Shown: positions 1 through 5,684 of the stretch, piece by piece | Numbering within the stretch: position 1 is the stretch's first letter | Layout of the letters: each line of letters opens with the position of its first letter | Source of the DNA: a virus | Taxonomy: Duplodnaviria > Heunggongvirae > Uroviricota > Caudoviricetes | Length of the DNA: 5,986 nucleotides | IMG/VR virus record: IMGVR_UViG_2778261446_000004 | Direction: 5' to 3' (one strand) | Notes under the pieces: generated by a model | The model's database searches: none | What the model was told of the DNA's origin: nothing | Seen by the model: the letters and a program-made list of their open reading frames with translations, nothing else | Translations under genes and position numbers: made by a program

Positions 1-132
1 GTCCATTTCCGCGCAGACGATGACGTCACTGCCCGGCTGTATGCGCGAGGTTACCGACTGCGGCCTGAGTTTTTTAAGTGACGTAAAATCGTGTTGAGGC
101 CAACGCCCATAATGCGGGCAGTTGCCCGGCAT
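1..132 (-). CDS. insB: IS1 InsB' (catalytic part of the InsAB' transposase), first 44 codons only; partial at window edge
   Basis: Minus-strand ATG at 130..132 followed by [44 protein letters not shown], which I recognise as the IS1 InsB N-terminus. It is in the -1 frame relative to insA and runs off the window start. Confidence 0.85.
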
Positions 133-326
133 CCAACGCCATTCATGGCCATATCAATGATTTTCTGGTGCGTACCGGGTTGAGAAGCGGTGTAAGTGAA
201 CTGCAGTTGCCATGTTTTACGGCAGTGAGAGCAGAGATAGCGCTGATGTCCGGCAGTGCTTTTGCCGTTACGCACCACCCCGTCAGTAGCTGAACAGGAG
301 GGACAGCTGATAGAAACAGAAGCCAC
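51..326 (-). CDS. insA: IS1 InsA (DNA-binding regulator and N-terminal part of the InsAB' frameshift transposase)
   Basis: The 91-aa translation matches the IS1 InsA protein as I remember it, including the Cys-rich zinc-finger-like N-terminus (CPSCS...CSHC). It starts with GTG (minus strand 324..326) as in IS1, and the stop TAA is at 51..53. Confidence 0.95.
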
Positions 327-358
327 TGGAGCACCTCAAAAACACCATCATACACTAA

Positions 359-381
359 ATCAGTAAGTTGGCAGCATTACC
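359..381 (-). repeat. IS1 terminal inverted repeat (left end, IRL)
   Basis: The reverse complement of 359..381 is GGTAATGCTGCCAACTTACTGAT, the characteristic IS1 end. Sequence from 382 onward (catatacag...) is non-IS1. Confidence 0.85.
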
Positions 382-437: not shown

Positions 438-614
438 TCAGGTAAGTTGGCTGGAGTCAGTGGTATCCATCCAATCTGGAGCTATTCCCAGACGTTCCGC
501 TATCTCTTCGTTGGTCATGTCTTCAGTTGATAAATCCACCAGACAATCGTTAACTTCAGGATAGTCAGGGGGAAGTAACAGGTATCCCCGCAACGCTTTC
601 AGGTCTTTTTCCAT
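438..614 (-). CDS. Hypothetical small acidic protein (58 aa), function unknown; possible regulator
   Basis: ATG at 612..614 (minus) is preceded by a consensus Shine-Dalgarno AAGGAG (reverse complement of 623..628) with 8-nt spacing. Translation is MEKDLKALRGYLLLPPDYPEVNDCLVDLSTEDMTNEEIAERLGIAPDWMDTTDSSQLT. The ORF-track start (TTG at 671) has no RBS and would run through a palindrome, so the shorter ORF is preferred. The NEEIAERLGI segment resembles the first helix of LuxR/sigma region-4 HTH motifs, but the motif is incomplete. Confidence 0.5.
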   Translation of the reverse strand: MEKDLKALRGYLLLPPDYPEVNDCLVDLSTEDMTNEEIAERLGIAPDWMDTTDSSQLT

Positions 615-731: not shown

Positions 732-785
732 GCTGTTTCTTTCGCCTAGCTCAACATATCGCCTTAACTACCAGCCATTATCCTT

Positions 786-797
786 GTCTCAATTGGG
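786..797 (+). repeat. 12-bp motif copy A (GTCTCAATTGGG), direct copy of the motif in the inverted repeat below
   Basis: Matches copy B (GTCTCAATAGGG, 825..836) at 11 of 12 positions. It is embedded in a 7-bp inverted repeat CCTTGTC (782..788) / GACAAGG (809..815). Confidence 0.5.
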
Positions 798-824
798 TAT
801 ACCGTAATGACAAGGTGATACAAA

Positions 825-840
825 GTCTCAATAGGGTTGT
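825..840 (+). repeat. Left arm of a perfect 16-bp inverted repeat (motif copy B); candidate recombinase binding half-site
   Basis: GTCTCAATAGGGTTGT at 825..840 is the exact reverse complement of 895..910. The arms enclose 54 bp that contain the recombinase promoter. Confidence 0.6.
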
Positions 841-851
841 ATAGGAACATT

Positions 852-880
852 TTGACTACACAAAATGCATTATGTATCAT
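852..880 (+). promoter_or_regulatory. Candidate sigma70 promoter for the serine recombinase gene
   Basis: -35 TTGACT (852..857), 17-bp spacer, -10 TATCAT (875..880). The predicted start site is about 30 nt upstream of the ATG at 917. The promoter sits entirely between the two inverted-repeat arms. Confidence 0.5.
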
Positions 881-894
881 TTGCACTTATATTC

Positions 895-910
895 ACAACC
901 CTATTGAGAC
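895..910 (-). repeat. Right arm of the perfect 16-bp inverted repeat (motif copy C, inverted)
   Basis: ACAACCCTATTGAGAC at 895..910 is the reverse complement of 825..840. It ends 6 bp before the recombinase start codon. Confidence 0.6.
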
Positions 911-916
911 AATGCA

Positions 917-1543
917 ATGAACGTTAGAATTTACTGCCGAGCATCAACTGAGGGGCAACACGCTGATCGAGCACTTACCAGCCTACGTGAATTTTCAAAA
1001 TCAAAAGGCTGGCAGATTGCAGGAGAGTATATAGAAAATGCTAGCGGGGCGAAGCTTGAGCGCGTAGAGCTTATGCGGCTATTGTCTGAAGCCCAGTCCG
1101 GCGATCTGTTGCTAGTGGAAGCTATAGATCGTCTGAGTCGCCTAGAACATAGCGCATGGGTCGAACTGAAAGATACGCTCAACCGAAAAGGGTTAATCAT
1201 CGTATCAATGGATTTACCAACGAGCTGGCAGATGGTCGAGATGGCAGGCAATGACCTAACCAGCGGCATCCTGAGAGCCGTAAATGCCATGTTGATTGAT
1301 ATCCTTGCCACAATGGCACGGCAGGATTACGAAACACGTCGTAAACGCCAACAGCAAGGCATTGAGCGAGCTAAAAGCGAAGGAATATACATTGGCAGGG
1401 AGAAAAATCAGGAAGCCCGAGAGATCGTTAGAGAGATGTTGGAGCAAGGAGTAAAACCTGAACTCATCATGAAGGCAGCAGGAATCAGCCGAGCGACTTA
1501 CTACCGTATAAAAAGTGAGCTGTCAGTCGTAAAATCAGAATAA
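917..1543 (+). CDS. Small serine recombinase (resolvase/invertase family), 208 aa
   Basis: N-terminal catalytic motif Y6-x-R8-A-S10-T-E-G-Q14 (the canonical YxRVSTxxQ with V replaced by A, nucleophile Ser10 present). Conserved D71-R72-L-S-R75 (DRLSR motif). E/R/Q-rich helix around residues 126-141 (dimerisation helix E). C-terminal HTH-like segment (ELIMKAAGISRATYYRIKSE). Immediately preceded by repeats and its own promoter. Confidence 0.9.
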   Translation: MNVRIYCRASTEGQHADRALTSLREFSKSKGWQIAGEYIENASGAKLERVELMRLLSEAQSGDLLLVEAIDRLSRLEHSAWVELKDTLNRKGLIIVSMDLPTSWQMVEMAGNDLTSGILRAVNAMLIDILATMARQDYETRRKRQQQGIERAKSEGIYIGREKNQEAREIVREMLEQGVKPELIMKAAGISRATYYRIKSELSVVKSE

Positions 1544-1677
1544 CCTTTGAAAGGTCGTCAGGCTTGTTTCATCTGCTAAAAGCCAGCATTTCTGACCATA
1601 ATACCTGGGGGCACCTACTGGGGCACCCACCAAAATCGAAAGACAAATAAGTTATAATTCAATCTGTTAGTTTACTT

Positions 1678-1700
1678 TTCGATTCCTGCAGGGGACACCA
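1678..1700 (+). other. 3'-terminal 23-nt fragment of tRNA-Arg (argW type, ...TTCGATTCCTGCAGGGGACACCA); candidate att core / direct repeat marking an integrative-element junction
   Basis: TTCGATTCCTGCAGGGGACACCA reproduces the T-loop, 3' T-stem, acceptor 3' strand and CCA end of E. coli tRNA-Arg(CCU) as I recall it. The upstream sequence (tttactt...) cannot pair as a T-stem or acceptor stem, so this is not an intact tRNA gene. It lies 161 bp upstream of the integrase start codon. Confidence 0.75.
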
Positions 1701-1861
1701 TTTATCAGTTCGCTCCCATCCGTACCAGTCCGCAAAACCCCCTGAATATCAAGCCTCCCGTAGATTCACAGTTCGTCATGGTTCGCGTCAGATCGTTGAC
1801 AGCCGCACTCCATGACGGGTAAAAAGTGGATAAAATAATTTTACCCACCGGATTTTTACCC

Positions 1862-3019: not shown

Positions 3020-3346
3020 TTATATCGCCGGGTTATCGTCATCGGTGGCCCGGTTAATCAGATGCGTCAGAACAACCTTCACATCCACCTCATCCAAAAC
3101 CTCACCATCCACCGTTATCAGTGCATCACCTCTACGCTTGGCAAAGTGACAACCGCCTGAGTACGAAATCAGGTAGGTGCTTTCCGGCGATGGCTTCATA
3201 CCCTTCTCTATCACAGCAAACCCATGCGATGTCTCAATCACCAGGCTGTTAGCATTTACGCCGCAGATAGTCTCTATGGTTAGCGTGCGTTCAATATAGT
3301 CTTTTGCTGGCGATGGAAAACCCACGGTTGCCTCCACTCTTGACAC
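3020..3346 (-). CDS. UmuD'-like (peptidase S24 / UmuD-MucA family) protein, N-terminally truncated and possibly degenerate
   Basis: Near the N-terminus is GFPSPAKDYIE, matching the UmuD/MucA signature (UmuD: CGFPSPAADYVEQ). Later, RGDALITVDGEV resembles UmuD HGDIVIAAVDGEF. The ORF begins only 7 residues before the GFPSPA motif (UmuD has a 24-residue cleavable arm). I could not align a G-D-S-M catalytic-serine block (the region reads SYSGGCH). GTG start with no Shine-Dalgarno. A LexA box lies 22 bp upstream. Could be a remnant or pseudogene. Confidence 0.4.
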   Translation of the reverse strand: MSRVEATVGFPSPAKDYIERTLTIETICGVNANSLVIETSHGFAVIEKGMKPSPESTYLISYSGGCHFAKRRGDALITVDGEVLDEVDVKVVLTHLINRATDDDNPAI

Positions 3347-3387
3347 TGGATAAAAACACAGTGCAAATACTGTATATCTAACCAGTA
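3340..3387 (+). promoter_or_regulatory. SOS-regulated promoter region: -35 TTGACA (3340..3345) and LexA box TACTGTATATCTAACCAGTA (3368..3387) upstream of the DinI-like gene
   Basis: The box has the CTGT-N8-CCAG arrangement (consensus CTGT-N8-ACAG). Its 3' half TAACCAGTA is identical to the E. coli dinI operator as I recall it (ACCTGTATAAATAACCAGTA). A perfect -35 hexamer TTGACA sits 22 bp upstream of the box; no clear -10 was identified. The box ends 15 bp before the ATG at 3403, and AGAGGGAAG (3390..3398) serves as RBS. Confidence 0.6.
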
Positions 3388-3402
3388 AAGAGGGAAGCTA
3401 AA

Positions 3403-3669
3403 ATGTTTGTGGAATTGGTTTATGACAAGCGCAATGTAGAGGGGCTCGAAGGGGCCAGAGAGATTATCCTGGCAGAGCTGACGAAGCGAGTGCACCAGAT
3501 TTTCCCTGATGCCGAAGTGAGGGTGAAGCCGATGCAGGCGAACGGCCTGAATAGCGATGCAAGTAAAAACGATCGGGAGAAGCTGAACCGCATGCTGGAG
3601 GATATGTTTGAAGAGGCCGATATGTGGCTGGTATCTGAGTTCCCGACCGTTCGCCAAGTTGGGCTGTAA
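3403..3669 (+). CDS. DinI-family protein (DNA-damage-inducible protein I-like), 88 aa
   Basis: Aligns by eye to E. coli DinI across its length: N-terminal M-x-V-E-L, central ELxxRV-x-x-x-FPD-x-E-V-x-V, and C-terminal acidic E-x-AD-x-W-L-VSE (DinI ends ...ESADDWFVSE). Good RBS, upstream LexA box, downstream terminator. Confidence 0.85.
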   Translation: MFVELVYDKRNVEGLEGAREIILAELTKRVHQIFPDAEVRVKPMQANGLNSDASKNDREKLNRMLEDMFEEADMWLVSEFPTVRQVGL

Positions 3670-3673
3670 TAGG

Positions 3674-3712
3674 TAGCGGACTTCTGTTTTTCATGGGAAG
3701 TCCGCTATTTTC
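3674..3712 (+). terminator. Rho-independent terminator after the DinI-like gene
   Basis: 11-bp perfect stem (TAGCGGACTTC 3674..3684 pairs with GAAGTCCGCTA 3697..3707) with a 12-nt loop, followed by TTTT (3708..3711). Starts 4 nt after the stop codon at 3667..3669. Confidence 0.7.
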
Positions 3713-3788
3713 AACGAAATATATGATCGATTCCCTGCTATAACGCATGCTATACTGCGCACACCTTTAACTATTTATTCACTTTATA

Positions 3789-5684
3789 ATGAAACTCGCA
3801 AGCAGTGGATTCAGATTTGACATCAACGGGCTGAGGGCTGTAGCCGTATTGGCCGTTATCATTTTTCACTATAAAGATTCCTGGCTTCCCGGCGGATACG
3901 CGGGTGTGGATGTATTCTTTGTGATATCTGGTTTTTTAATGACCTCTATTATTTTCTCAGGGGTTGAGAAAGGACAATTCAATCTATTTAAATTCTACGC
4001 TGCGAGAATTAAAAGAATCATCCCTGCACTTATCGCTATCTCTATGATAGTTGTTTTTCTTGGCTACTTTCTCATCGAACCATTGAGTTACCAAATGATT
4101 GGTAATCATGTGAAATCAAGCCTTCTTTTTATATCCAATATTGTATATAGAGATGAGGCTGGTTATTTTGATACGGAATCGTCAAGGAAATATTTATTAC
4201 ATACCTGGTCGTTATCTGTCGAATGGCAATTTTATTTAATTTATCCATTACTGGTAATTTTTGCTAAAAGAGCATTATCGTTTAGCAGCTTAAAGAAAAT
4301 TGTATTGGTTGCAGTATTTGTACTCTTTTTCTTGAATATTTACGTCACAAAAACCGACCCAACATCCTCATACTACATGCTTTATTCCAGGGCGTGGGAA
4401 ATGCTTCTTGGTGGTTTGGCTTTCTTATACCCTGCTAAATCGATTTCGAATAGAACAAGAAATTACGGTTCAGTTCTATGTTTGGCGGCTTTAATTGGCA
4501 CATTTTTTATTTTGGACAACCAAGACCCTTGGCCGGGATACTATGCACTTCTTCCTGTAGTTTTGGCTTTCGGCATTATTTTGTTGAATGGAAGCAATGC
4601 TTTACTTTCAAATAAGGTTATGCAGTACATAGGACTAATATCCTATTCTATTTATTTAGTTCACTGGCCCTTGTTGGTTTTTAACAGAACCTTAAACTTT
4701 GGCTTAAATTTTATTTCTTATGTCGTGATTACGTTTGCTATTGCGACATTGATTTACATGACTTTTGAGTCAAAGAGAAGAAGTGTTATCTTTACAGTTG
4801 TTTTGTACTCGATTGCTCTTGGTGTGGCATGGAAAGTTTCAGTTGCAGGCGTAACAAGTCGTGTTAACACGGAGTTTCAGTTAACCAAGCAACAATTCAG
4901 GAATAAATTTGAAGGGCACGCCGGGTTGGGTTCTTATGATAAAGTTGATTATTTTAATTCAACAGAAAATGATTTCGAATACATATTGATTGGTGATAGC
5001 CATGCTCGTCACTACTTCCAGTATATTAATAAAAATGAAAAAGTTGCCAGCCTTGCTTTAGACGGATGCAAATCTACAGAAAATTTCTATCCGACATCCC
5101 CATCACCTTTGATGATAAAACTATGTAAAGCTCGTTATAAAATGCAGGTAGATTTCATCAATGCGCACCCAGGAAAACCAGTAATATTATCACAAAGTGG
5201 TTTCGGGGTTTTACCGAGTTCATTTTCACGTGGCACTGATGAACCTATCGGTGATGGTCATGATTTCAATTCATTGGGTTTAGAAGAACTACATCTATTT
5301 ATTAATCGGATTAAAGACACTAAACATAAACTGTTTGTTATAGGTGACACGCAAGGGAGTGAAGGCGTTATGTTTGAATGCCTTGCTAAAGAAAATCTGC
5401 CAATCAATAGAATATTCAATGTAACATCCTGCCCTATAAAACAGGAATACAAACCTAAAAAATACAATCAAATTCTTGAGGCTAACGCTGAGAAGCTTGG
5501 GTATACATATATCAGCCCTGATCCTGCGCTATGTGATGGAAAAGAATGTATAATAGTTAAAGATGGTATGCCTATGTATACTGATAGTAGCCATCTTTCA
5601 AAGCTGGCCTCTGAAATTGTAGGGGACTATGTATTTAGAGAGATAAAGAAACAAGAAATTTCAACAAGCAATAAAGATAATTAA
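3789..5684 (+). CDS. Acyltransferase-3 / SGNH fusion protein (OafA/OatA-type), probable O-antigen or surface-carbohydrate O-acetyltransferase, 631 aa
   Basis: N-terminal AT3 signature (FRFDINGLRAVAVLAVIIFH, the R-x-D-x-L-R-x-x-A motif with a conserved His). About 350 aa of repeated hydrophobic segments, consistent with a multi-pass membrane domain. C-terminal soluble domain carries an SGNH block-I GDSH motif (YILIGDSHARHYF). The coding sequence looks AT-rich by eye compared with the integrase; GC content was not computed. No Shine-Dalgarno upstream of the ATG. Confidence 0.85.
   Translation: MKLASSGFRFDINGLRAVAVLAVIIFHYKDSWLPGGYAGVDVFFVISGFLMTSIIFSGVEKGQFNLFKFYAARIKRIIPALIAISMIVVFLGYFLIEPLSYQMIGNHVKSSLLFISNIVYRDEAGYFDTESSRKYLLHTWSLSVEWQFYLIYPLLVIFAKRALSFSSLKKIVLVAVFVLFFLNIYVTKTDPTSSYYMLYSRAWEMLLGGLAFLYPAKSISNRTRNYGSVLCLAALIGTFFILDNQDPWPGYYALLPVVLAFGIILLNGSNALLSNKVMQYIGLISYSIYLVHWPLLVFNRTLNFGLNFISYVVITFAIATLIYMTFESKRRSVIFTVVLYSIALGVAWKVSVAGVTSRVNTEFQLTKQQFRNKFEGHAGLGSYDKVDYFNSTENDFEYILIGDSHARHYFQYINKNEKVASLALDGCKSTENFYPTSPSPLMIKLCKARYKMQVDFINAHPGKPVILSQSGFGVLPSSFSRGTDEPIGDGHDFNSLGLEELHLFINRIKDTKHKLFVIGDTQGSEGVMFECLAKENLPINRIFNVTSCPIKQEYKPKKYNQILEANAEKLGYTYISPDPALCDGKECIIVKDGMPMYTDSSHLSKLASEIVGDYVFREIKKQEISTSNKDN

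Follow-up and report, generated by a model that had tools for sequence, protein, structure and literature searches.

The attachment site shared by KplE1, HK620 and Sf6 has been dissected experimentally (PMC2951348). The TorI boxes in this site read GTTCG, GATCG or GTCCG, TAAA is found in all P' sites, and the spacing of these blocks has been described (Panis et al., PMC2951348). Integration regenerates the core sequence at both ends of an element, and the next element can enter either copy, so that tandem arrays build up (PMC7192596, PMC4383910). In the arrays described with Islander and TIGER (PMC4383910, PMC7192596), the intact tDNA comes first and co-oriented displaced 3' fragments follow at each boundary. 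In E. coli K-12, attL of the CPS-53 (KplE1) prophage is fused to the intact tRNA gene argW, and a tRNA fragment (pawZ, annotated as a 15-nt pseudo-tRNA) faces host DNA. Another related arrangement is the CIME/ICE pair of Streptococcus, where an integrative element is accreted with a decayed neighbour that can be mobilised in cis.

The DNA analysed here, called the window, is a stretch of 5,986 nt from a virus record (IMGVR_UViG_2778261446_000004). It is 100% identical to part of the E. coli S163-2 chromosome (NZ_CP058709.1) and of two other complete genomes. These three genomes come from unrelated sources, implying that the arrangement is inherited stably. The gene order in S163-2 begins with yfdC, argW, intS1, wzy (O-antigen polymerase-like), a 252-aa ORF (truncated tailspike) and IS1. 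IS1 is followed by a 58-aa ORF, a serine recombinase gene, a 23-nt piece of tRNA (the 23-mer) and intS2. To the right of intS2 are a 101-aa ORF, a DinI gene, an AT3-SGNH acyltransferase gene and then tail, head and terminase genes. The remaining part consists of lysis genes, the Q gene (split by a second IS1), replication and immunity genes, recombination genes, torI, the core CTGCAGGGGACACCAT and dsdC. The 3' end of argW exists in three co-oriented copies: the gene itself, the 23-mer 5.9 kb to its right, and a 16-mer another 42 kb rightward. The locus is an array of three elements: a P22-like prophage of which the left end remains, a ~10-kb island reduced to its last 1.3 kb, and a complete 42-kb IntS2/TorI lambdoid prophage. 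The intergenic stretch between the recombinase gene and intS2 (Table 1) is very likely a hybrid attachment site within this array.

The S163-2 locus and K-12 CPS-53 have the tRNA gene and the 16-nt core in common, and their P' arms hardly differ. Both loci also contain five TorI boxes, arm motifs for IntS, an intS promoter overlapping attL, and TorI with a displaced core beside dsdC. While attL of K-12 is joined to the intact tRNA, the attL arm in S163-2 is fused to the right end of another element, and the fragment there is 23 nt, not 15-16 nt, and is supplied by the island. HK620, Sf6 and CUS-3 (Lederbergvirus) and the argW Stx2a phages have an integrase and P' arm of 96-97% DNA identity, and the annotated 16-nt attP core of HK620 is identical. 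While these are P22-like podoviruses or Stx phages, the prophage of S163-2 has myovirus-type late genes and shares the recombination module alone.

As in the Islander and TIGER arrays, an intact tDNA is followed in S163-2 by two co-oriented displaced 3' fragments. Here, however, an IS1-associated deletion appears to have erased one internal core and the integrase of the middle element. The members of this array do not each have their own integrase and their own tDNA fragment: the island remnant has no integrase, and the P22-like remnant retains its integrase but has lost its fragment. Both losses are consistent with an IS1-associated deletion. Due to the lost core and integrase, a rule of 'one integrase and one fragment per element' would mis-resolve this array.

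The first-pass annotation, made from the window alone, proposed a tandem or composite island in which the core is at once the attR-like end of an upstream element and the left boundary of the IntS-type element, and suggested extending the sequence leftward. Extension locates the intact argW 5.9 kb upstream, and a further core copy, the third, closes the prophage beside torI 42 kb to the right, so the proposal stands. It counted two elements at the junction. This is indeed a junction of integrated elements, but the array holds three, and the left neighbour is a 1.3-kb remnant.

Table 1. Features of the argW array of E. coli S163-2 and of the loci compared with it. Positions are those of the window unless a locus is named; subtracting 20000 from an L001 (S163-2) coordinate gives the window coordinate.
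Feature	Position	Strand	Basis or remark
IS1A, right part	1..381	-	annotated transposase; terminal inverted repeat ends at 381
58-aa ORF, function unknown	438..614	-	annotated hypothetical; PHROG 35119; no Pfam match
Three GTCTCAAT(A/T)GGGT copies	784..912		786-798 (+), 825-840 (+), 895-910 (-)
Perfect 16-nt inverted repeat	825-840 / 895-910		just 5' of recombinase ATG
Sigma70-like promoter	852-880		bracketed by the inverted repeat
Serine recombinase, 208 aa, resolvase/invertase type	917..1543	+	Pfam Resolvase 2.2e-23; PHROG 125 'DNA invertase' 1.6e-40
Rfam MIR319 match	1510-1594	-	23.6 bits, gathering score 54
Junction (hybrid attachment site, very likely)	1544-1861		recombinase stop codon (1543) to intS ATG (1862)
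attR arm of argW island	1544..1677	+	identical arm beside the 23-mer in L003 and L004
GGGGCACC direct repeat	1608-1615, 1620-1627		12-bp spacing; extends to 11 nt
IHF-like ATTCAAnnnnTTA	1657-1669		inspection only; one mismatch to consensus
Orphan argW 3' fragment, att core/direct repeat of argW island	1678..1700	+	L001:21678-21700; 23/23 match; flanks intact islands
IntS/TorI (KplE1, HK620, Sf6) 16-nt core CTGCAGGGGACACCAT, nested within the 23-mer	1686..1701	+	identical to annotated HK620 attP core
attL (P') arm of IntS2 prophage	1702..1861	+	alignment with K-12 attL and HK620 attP; motif positions
Five TorI boxes	1706-1713, 1726-1733, 1769-1776, 1779-1786, 1789-1796		spacing as published
intS promoter, -35 TTGACA	1796-1801		in P' arm
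Four GGRTAAAA IntS arm-type motifs	1817-1824, 1828-1835, 1839-1846 (rc), 1854-1861 (rc)		
intS2, P4-type tyrosine integrase, 385 aa	1862..3019	+	Pfam Arm-DNA-bind_3, Phage_int_M, Phage_integrase
Prophage left-end cargo	3020..5986	mixed	annotation; Pfam
101-aa ORF	3020-3325	-	annotation; no Pfam/PADLOC match
DinI-like protein	3403-3669	+	Pfam DinI
AT3-SGNH acyltransferase, 631 aa	3789-5684	+	Pfam Acyl_transf_3, SGNH
Tail-fibre assembly gene, start	from 5738	-	annotation
Intact tRNA-Arg(CCT) gene argW	L001:15734-15808		3' end matched by the 23-mer, L001:15786-15808
Full IS1A copy, 768 bp	L001:19614-20381		window begins inside it
IS3-family element in dsdC	L002:17219-19490		
Second 16-nt core copy, prophage far end	L002:19586-19600	-	plus adjoining T
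torI	L002:19674-19874		
Second IS1, in Q	L002:33883-34650		9-bp target duplication aactatctg
Island copy, WCHEC005784	L003:6984-17268		23-mer at 6961-6983 and 17269-17291
Island copy, S1-INA-02-A	L004:8230-17295		
Island copy, NCTC9064	L007:12542-20197		23-mer at 12519 and 20198
Hybrid junction, E. albertii NBRC 107761	L008:9148-9480		internal deletions in P' arm; intS gone
Locus of Citrobacter sp. Awk 4	L009:1450-1870		23-mer, then second island-type attL arm
Reciprocal junction, example	NZ_CP025950.3 1516869-1517268		torI, 16-nt core, island attL arm, island integrase

The 23-mer TTCGATTCCTGCAGGGGACACCA matches the 3' end of argW on the same chromosome at all 23 positions. With up to three mismatches allowed, only two copies are found in 46 kb, and none is expected (100 shuffles). 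A tRNA gene as such is not present in the window. ARAGORN finds 0 genes, and Rfam gives no tRNA match even at E<=1. There is no complete cloverleaf with an anticodon; the last 23 nt of argW alone match, and the bases 5' of 1678 cannot be aligned with the 5' part of argW. These results agree with the first-pass annotation, which had recognized an argW-type 3' end, noted the absence of the 5' part, and concluded that the DNA to the left (serine recombinase, IS1) is not the native argW gene. A conserved island arm is found in that place.

A hidden or degenerate tRNA, or some other RNA, in the 1544-1861 stretch was considered and rejected, as nothing was detected by ARAGORN or Rfam. The fold of 1530-1705 has z = -0.06, that is, a structure signal is absent when compared with shuffled sequence. 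No rho-independent terminator 3' of the recombinase gene was found between 1544 and 1700. Rfam lists the plant miRNA family MIR319 on the minus strand, at a score far below the gathering score (Table 1). This chance match stems from an imperfect hairpin past the recombinase stop codon.

The region from ~383 to 1700 (1.3 kb) recurs in ~516 of the 5426 complete E. coli genomes, and the match nearly always ends precisely where the core does. Members of the argW island family occur in about 10% of complete E. coli genomes. Intact islands lie within argW and have the 23-bp repeat on both sides, as in WCHEC005784 (~10.3 kb) and NCTC9064 (~7.7 kb). The 23-nt length is that of the direct repeat of this island, while the identity of IntS-type phages with the tRNA is limited to the inner 16 nt. 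Because the island's 23-bp repeat supplied it, the orphan fragment exceeds by 8 nt the 15-16 nt that IntS-type phages leave, as seen at the far end of the 42-kb prophage and in pawZ of K-12. The first-pass annotation described the 23-mer as an att core of a P4-family integrase and as the left boundary of the IntS-type element. It is the core of the island, and IntS uses its inner 16 nt only. The 23-mer is a genuine recombination scar, where the decayed end of the island meets the left end of the 42-kb prophage. Orphan-fragment junctions are a well-known and ordinary class of structure.

A fragment of this kind might also be left by a duplicated argW gene whose 5' part was deleted, with no att repeat of a mobile element involved. 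Deletions did occur at this locus, judging from the IS1 with deletion signs 1.3 kb to the left. The IS1 boundary, however, is 1.3 kb off and away from the fragment. The same conserved island arm stands directly left of the 23-mer in hundreds of genomes, and the base at which tRNA identity ends does not differ between E. coli, E. albertii and Citrobacter. A duplicated argW is therefore scarcely credible as the source of the 23-mer, and the island's repeat is retained as its origin.

The island backbone encodes a 428-aa P4-type integrase, a 251-aa ORF, an excisionase-like HTH protein, an RCR-type Rep-like protein, the 58-aa ORF and the serine recombinase. Its integrase (for example WP_023149819.1) is only 30% identical to IntS. 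The P4-type domain composition (an Arm-DNA-bind_3/DUF4102 N-terminal domain, a central domain and a Phage_integrase catalytic domain) is found both in IntS2 and in the island integrase of WCHEC005784. A variable slot, transcribed mostly leftward, is located between the Rep gene and the 58-aa ORF. It holds two large unknown proteins in WCHEC005784, a type III-A retron (RT and PRTase) in S1-INA-02-A, and a ParA-like protein in NCTC9064. PADLOC and Pfam give no matches for the two large WCHEC005784 cargo proteins or for the 58-aa ORF. The slot looks like a hotspot for defence cargo. No published name for the island and no description of it at the argW locus were found in the literature on satellites, PICI, retrons and defence hotspots, and a survey of E. 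coli defence islands does not mention yfdC, dsdC or tRNA-Arg. Nevertheless, the island belongs to a familiar class, the small tRNA-integrating elements with a cargo slot.

S163-2 keeps only the last 1.3 kb of this island. IS1 abuts the remnant at window position 381/382, and the island's own integrase, attL arm and replication module are all missing. The attR end is preserved: the right arm and the 23-bp repeat directly follow the recombinase gene, and this end is identical in WCHEC005784 and S1-INA-02-A and ~95% identical in NCTC9064. As far as the IS1 boundary, the remnant is 99.9% identical to the retron-carrying island of S1-INA-02-A. The 58-aa ORF occupies the same position in the islands of WCHEC005784, S1-INA-02-A and NCTC9064, and the serine recombinase is the final gene before the 23-bp repeat in all three.

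Upstream of the recombinase gene are three copies of GTCTCAAT(A/T)GGGT. Two of them make up a perfect inverted repeat (16 nt) on either side of a sigma70-like promoter, just 5' of the recombinase ATG. An invertible promoter switch of the Hin/Gin/Pin type was considered and rejected. When the segment 825-910, which comprises the two 16-nt arms and a 54-bp spacer, is flipped, it matches none of the 546 genomes that carry it better than in the original orientation, the best match having 90.5% identity. Since no flipped copy is found in these 546 genomes, the GTCTCAAT(A/T)GGGT copies are more likely operator-like or res-like, and they probably serve as binding sites of that kind. A cross-species search with the recombinase protein returned only eight loci. 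In five of them the recombinase (80-84% identical) exists in other contexts, and no argW core is found within 330 nt.

What lies to the left of the island remnant points to the loss of DNA. In S163-2, intS1, wzy and the tailspike gene correspond to the left end of a P22-like prophage that is intact in B25FEP. The same DNA of B25FEP runs on into a full tailspike gene and ejection-protein genes, while the tailspike gene in S163-2 is cut by IS1. On the other side of IS1, the island sequence begins upstream of the position that the retron PRTase gene has in the island of S1-INA-02-A. IS1A thus links a truncated tailspike gene of the P22 type with the argW island's right end. Its flanks (..acaacattac and catatacag..) lack a 9-bp target duplication. 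The IS1A sequence is identical to a copy at the argW locus of S1-INA-02-A. The simplest reading of the missing duplication and the two truncated contexts is that they form the signature of an IS1-associated deletion. Such a deletion would have taken most of the P22-like prophage, the internal core that separated it from the island, and all of the island but its last 1.3 kb, including the island's distinct P4-type integrase.

The right half of the junction belongs to the prophage. Homology to the phage attP starts at 1686, and 1686-1861 aligns almost base for base with attL of K-12 CPS-53/KplE1 and with attP of HK620. The 16-bp core is followed by a P' arm that carries five predicted TorI boxes (two of them 12 nt apart, three 2 nt apart), TAAA sites and an overlapping putative intS promoter. 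The cognate integrase gene, intS2, is adjacent, and torI and the second core are found at the other end of the prophage. By its motifs and alignments, this would be a textbook attL arm of the KplE1/HK620 type. IntS2 is 98.7% identical in amino acid sequence to K-12 IntS and 97.7% identical to IntS1 of S163-2.

The right-hand element is a full-length lambdoid prophage of the myovirus type with a widely shared IntS-TorI recombination module. Its late genes are ~95.6% identical to those of the induced phage vB_EcoM-611R5 and ~83% identical to those of Salmonella phage SEN34. The AT3-SGNH acyltransferase gene occupies the slot where IntS-type phages usually have O-antigen modification genes. From this position, the acyltransferase region (3020-5684) is probably a lysogenic-conversion module. 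The Q antitermination gene is interrupted by the second IS1, which is flanked by a 9-bp target duplication (Table 1). With Q split, the otherwise complete 42-kb prophage probably fails to express its late genes; induction may thus abort, and excision might escape observation altogether.

Another feature of the junction is the GGGGCACC direct repeat in the left arm. The first-pass annotation placed the two boxes exactly and suggested an arm-type or accessory-protein site. Conservation makes an arm-type site plausible, but its user would be the integrase that the island has lost here, rather than IntS. The island copies of NCTC9064, E. albertii and Citrobacter, although ~5% diverged and altered at many neighbouring bases, retain both boxes, whereas the boxes are degenerate in a coreless, decayed copy from Kluyvera. 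The attL arm of the island carries ATGGGGCAT and AGGGGCAT, again at a 12-bp spacing, and an inverted GTGCCCCC just 5' of the start codon of the island integrase. GGGGCA occurs seven times per intact island; five of these sites lie in the two 200-bp arms, against a background of 0.2-0.3 per kb. About 0.1 occurrence of GGGGCA is expected in 400 bp, although the motif was picked post hoc and the nominal significance is thus overstated. The GGGGCACC repeat alone is weakly non-random, and its conservation adds support. This pattern resembles the arm-type sites of heterobivalent integrases, which makes such a reading reasonable. The probable role of the GGGGCACC repeats is that of an arm-type site recognized by the integrase of the island itself, a protein absent from the S163-2 locus.

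The same boxes could be imagined to serve IntS and TorI as accessory or arm-type sites, which would make the junction a specially adapted attL. Their distance of 50-90 bp to the left of the core is typical of arm sites, and on inspection CTGGGG-CACC bears a loose resemblance to CTGCAGGGGACACC of the core. A normal IntS attL, however, has the body of the tRNA in this place, and the P arm of HK620 is unrelated and contains GGGTAAAA motifs. According to the published site definitions, TAAA is part of the IntS arm motif, and TorI boxes resemble GTTCG (PMC2951348). GGGGCACC is absent from other IntS att sites and accompanies the island with or without a neighbouring IntS element. A role for the boxes in IntS/TorI recombination is thus very improbable, and the island integrase is kept as their likely partner.

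It can also be asked whether the argW match and the GGGGCACC repeat mean anything at all, or are chance similarities. An 8-mer repeated within 20 nt would turn up in a 318-nt stretch in roughly 1 of 10 cases by our estimate. By contrast, none is expected for the 23-mer in 100 shuffles even with three mismatches, and it sits precisely at element boundaries. A chance match with no tRNA-Arg gene or further core nearby had been named beforehand as the outcome that would overturn the reading, and both the gene and a further core were found. GGGGCACC is kept in diverged islands while its flanks change, and GGGGCA(T/C) occurs twice at the same 12-bp spacing and once inverted in the other arm of the island. 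The likelihood that chance accounts for these similarities is practically negligible.

The arrangement of the elements and the make-up of their sites can be read from the sequence, and from these we infer the possible order of events and the present-day recombination activity. The left half of the junction is the attR arm of the ~10-kb argW island. The middle is the 3' piece of argW that is carried in the island attP and left at both ends of the island. The right half is a KplE1/HK620-type attL arm, the prophage recombining within the inner 16 nt. Two routes would lead to this arrangement. In one, the phage entered the core at the right end of the island, where 23 nt of argW and the native downstream DNA had been kept. 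In the other, the island entered argW of a cell that already carried the prophage. Both routes predict an identical sequence, so the order of integration is undecidable from the sequence. For excision of the 42-kb prophage by IntS and TorI, the junction core and its intact P' arm should provide the attL that recombines with the core on the torI side. The argW-proximal core has an IntS1-type P' arm and could yield a composite excision product of ~48 kb. The 5.9 kb between argW and the junction would be immobile alone, since the integrase and left arm of the island and the right arm and RDF of the P22-like element are gone.

Junctions of the window type (recombinase, core, intS) are found in four of the 5426 complete genomes. 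Three of these are identical over everything compared, which leaves few independent cases. The fourth, NCTC9064, is ~5% diverged and has an intact island. In E. albertii NBRC 107761, the hybrid junction has internal deletions in the P' arm and intS is gone. It is an older, eroded version of the junction in the window. The reciprocal junction, in which torI and the 16-nt core are followed by the attL arm and integrase of the island, is found in 36 complete genomes. Note that many of these look clonal, so no site preference can be inferred from 36 versus four.

Homologous recombination could have brought the whole array into the S163-2 lineage from elsewhere, in place of assembly there. More generally, RecA-dependent recombination may have formed or imported the junction, for instance by exchange between attL-intS segments or by transfer of the yfdC-dsdC region, with no integration in this lineage. 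Over 1342 nt, the two attL-intS segments, which lie 5.9 kb from each other, have 96.3% identity, more than enough for homologous exchange. The unrelated sources of the three genomes with an identical window, and the 99.9% identity of the island remnant to that of the unrelated strain S1-INA-02-A, also fit with import. However, the junction breaks exactly at the 23-mer and 16-mer boundaries expected of a site-specific crossover, and even an imported junction needs an integrase for its origin. NCTC9064 and E. albertii have an independent version of the junction, 5% diverged. Homologous recombination in place of integration in this lineage is thus unlikely, though to be kept in mind, and site-specific integration remains the preferred reading.

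The array can be compared with the CIME/ICE concept. In both, a decayed element without integrase lies between copies of the att core, beside a competent element using the same core, and by analogy the decayed block of S163-2 might leave through composite excision. Unlike in the CIME/ICE pair, this block consists of two fused remnants, and a 48-kb circle may be too large for its phage partner to package. Within one tRNA end, the cores of two unrelated P4-type integrases are nested (23 and 16 bp), and each element thereby regenerates a site usable by the other. A more far-reaching idea is that the island represents a hitherto undescribed family of integrative elements that carry defence genes and may be phage satellites, with a 23-bp core that deliberately overlaps the 16-bp core of IntS-type phages. 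Island and prophage would then stack in either order at argW, and through hybrid junctions the island, or what is left of it, could be excised or regulated along with an adjacent IntS/TorI prophage. We regard this idea as speculative and rather doubtful.

The current understanding of site-specific integration is unchanged by this locus, and the value of the junction is mainly practical. The boundary given by the orphan fragment lets the confusing 48-kb stretch be resolved correctly into one full prophage and the remnants of an island and of a P22-like element. An IS1-associated deletion can hide one boundary and deprive an element of its integrase, and automated island and prophage callers will mis-resolve such a case. 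What is particular to the S163-2 locus is the nesting of cores of different length and the partial erasure of the array by IS1.

Two minor observations concern related loci and the flank of the array. In Citrobacter sp. Awk 4, another island-type attL arm comes after the 23-mer, and of the island-type integrase behind it only 25 aa of the N-terminus are left. Two elements of one family thus stand in tandem at this locus, the second of which is decayed. In S163-2, the host gene dsdC, at the right flank of the array, is split by an IS3-family element.
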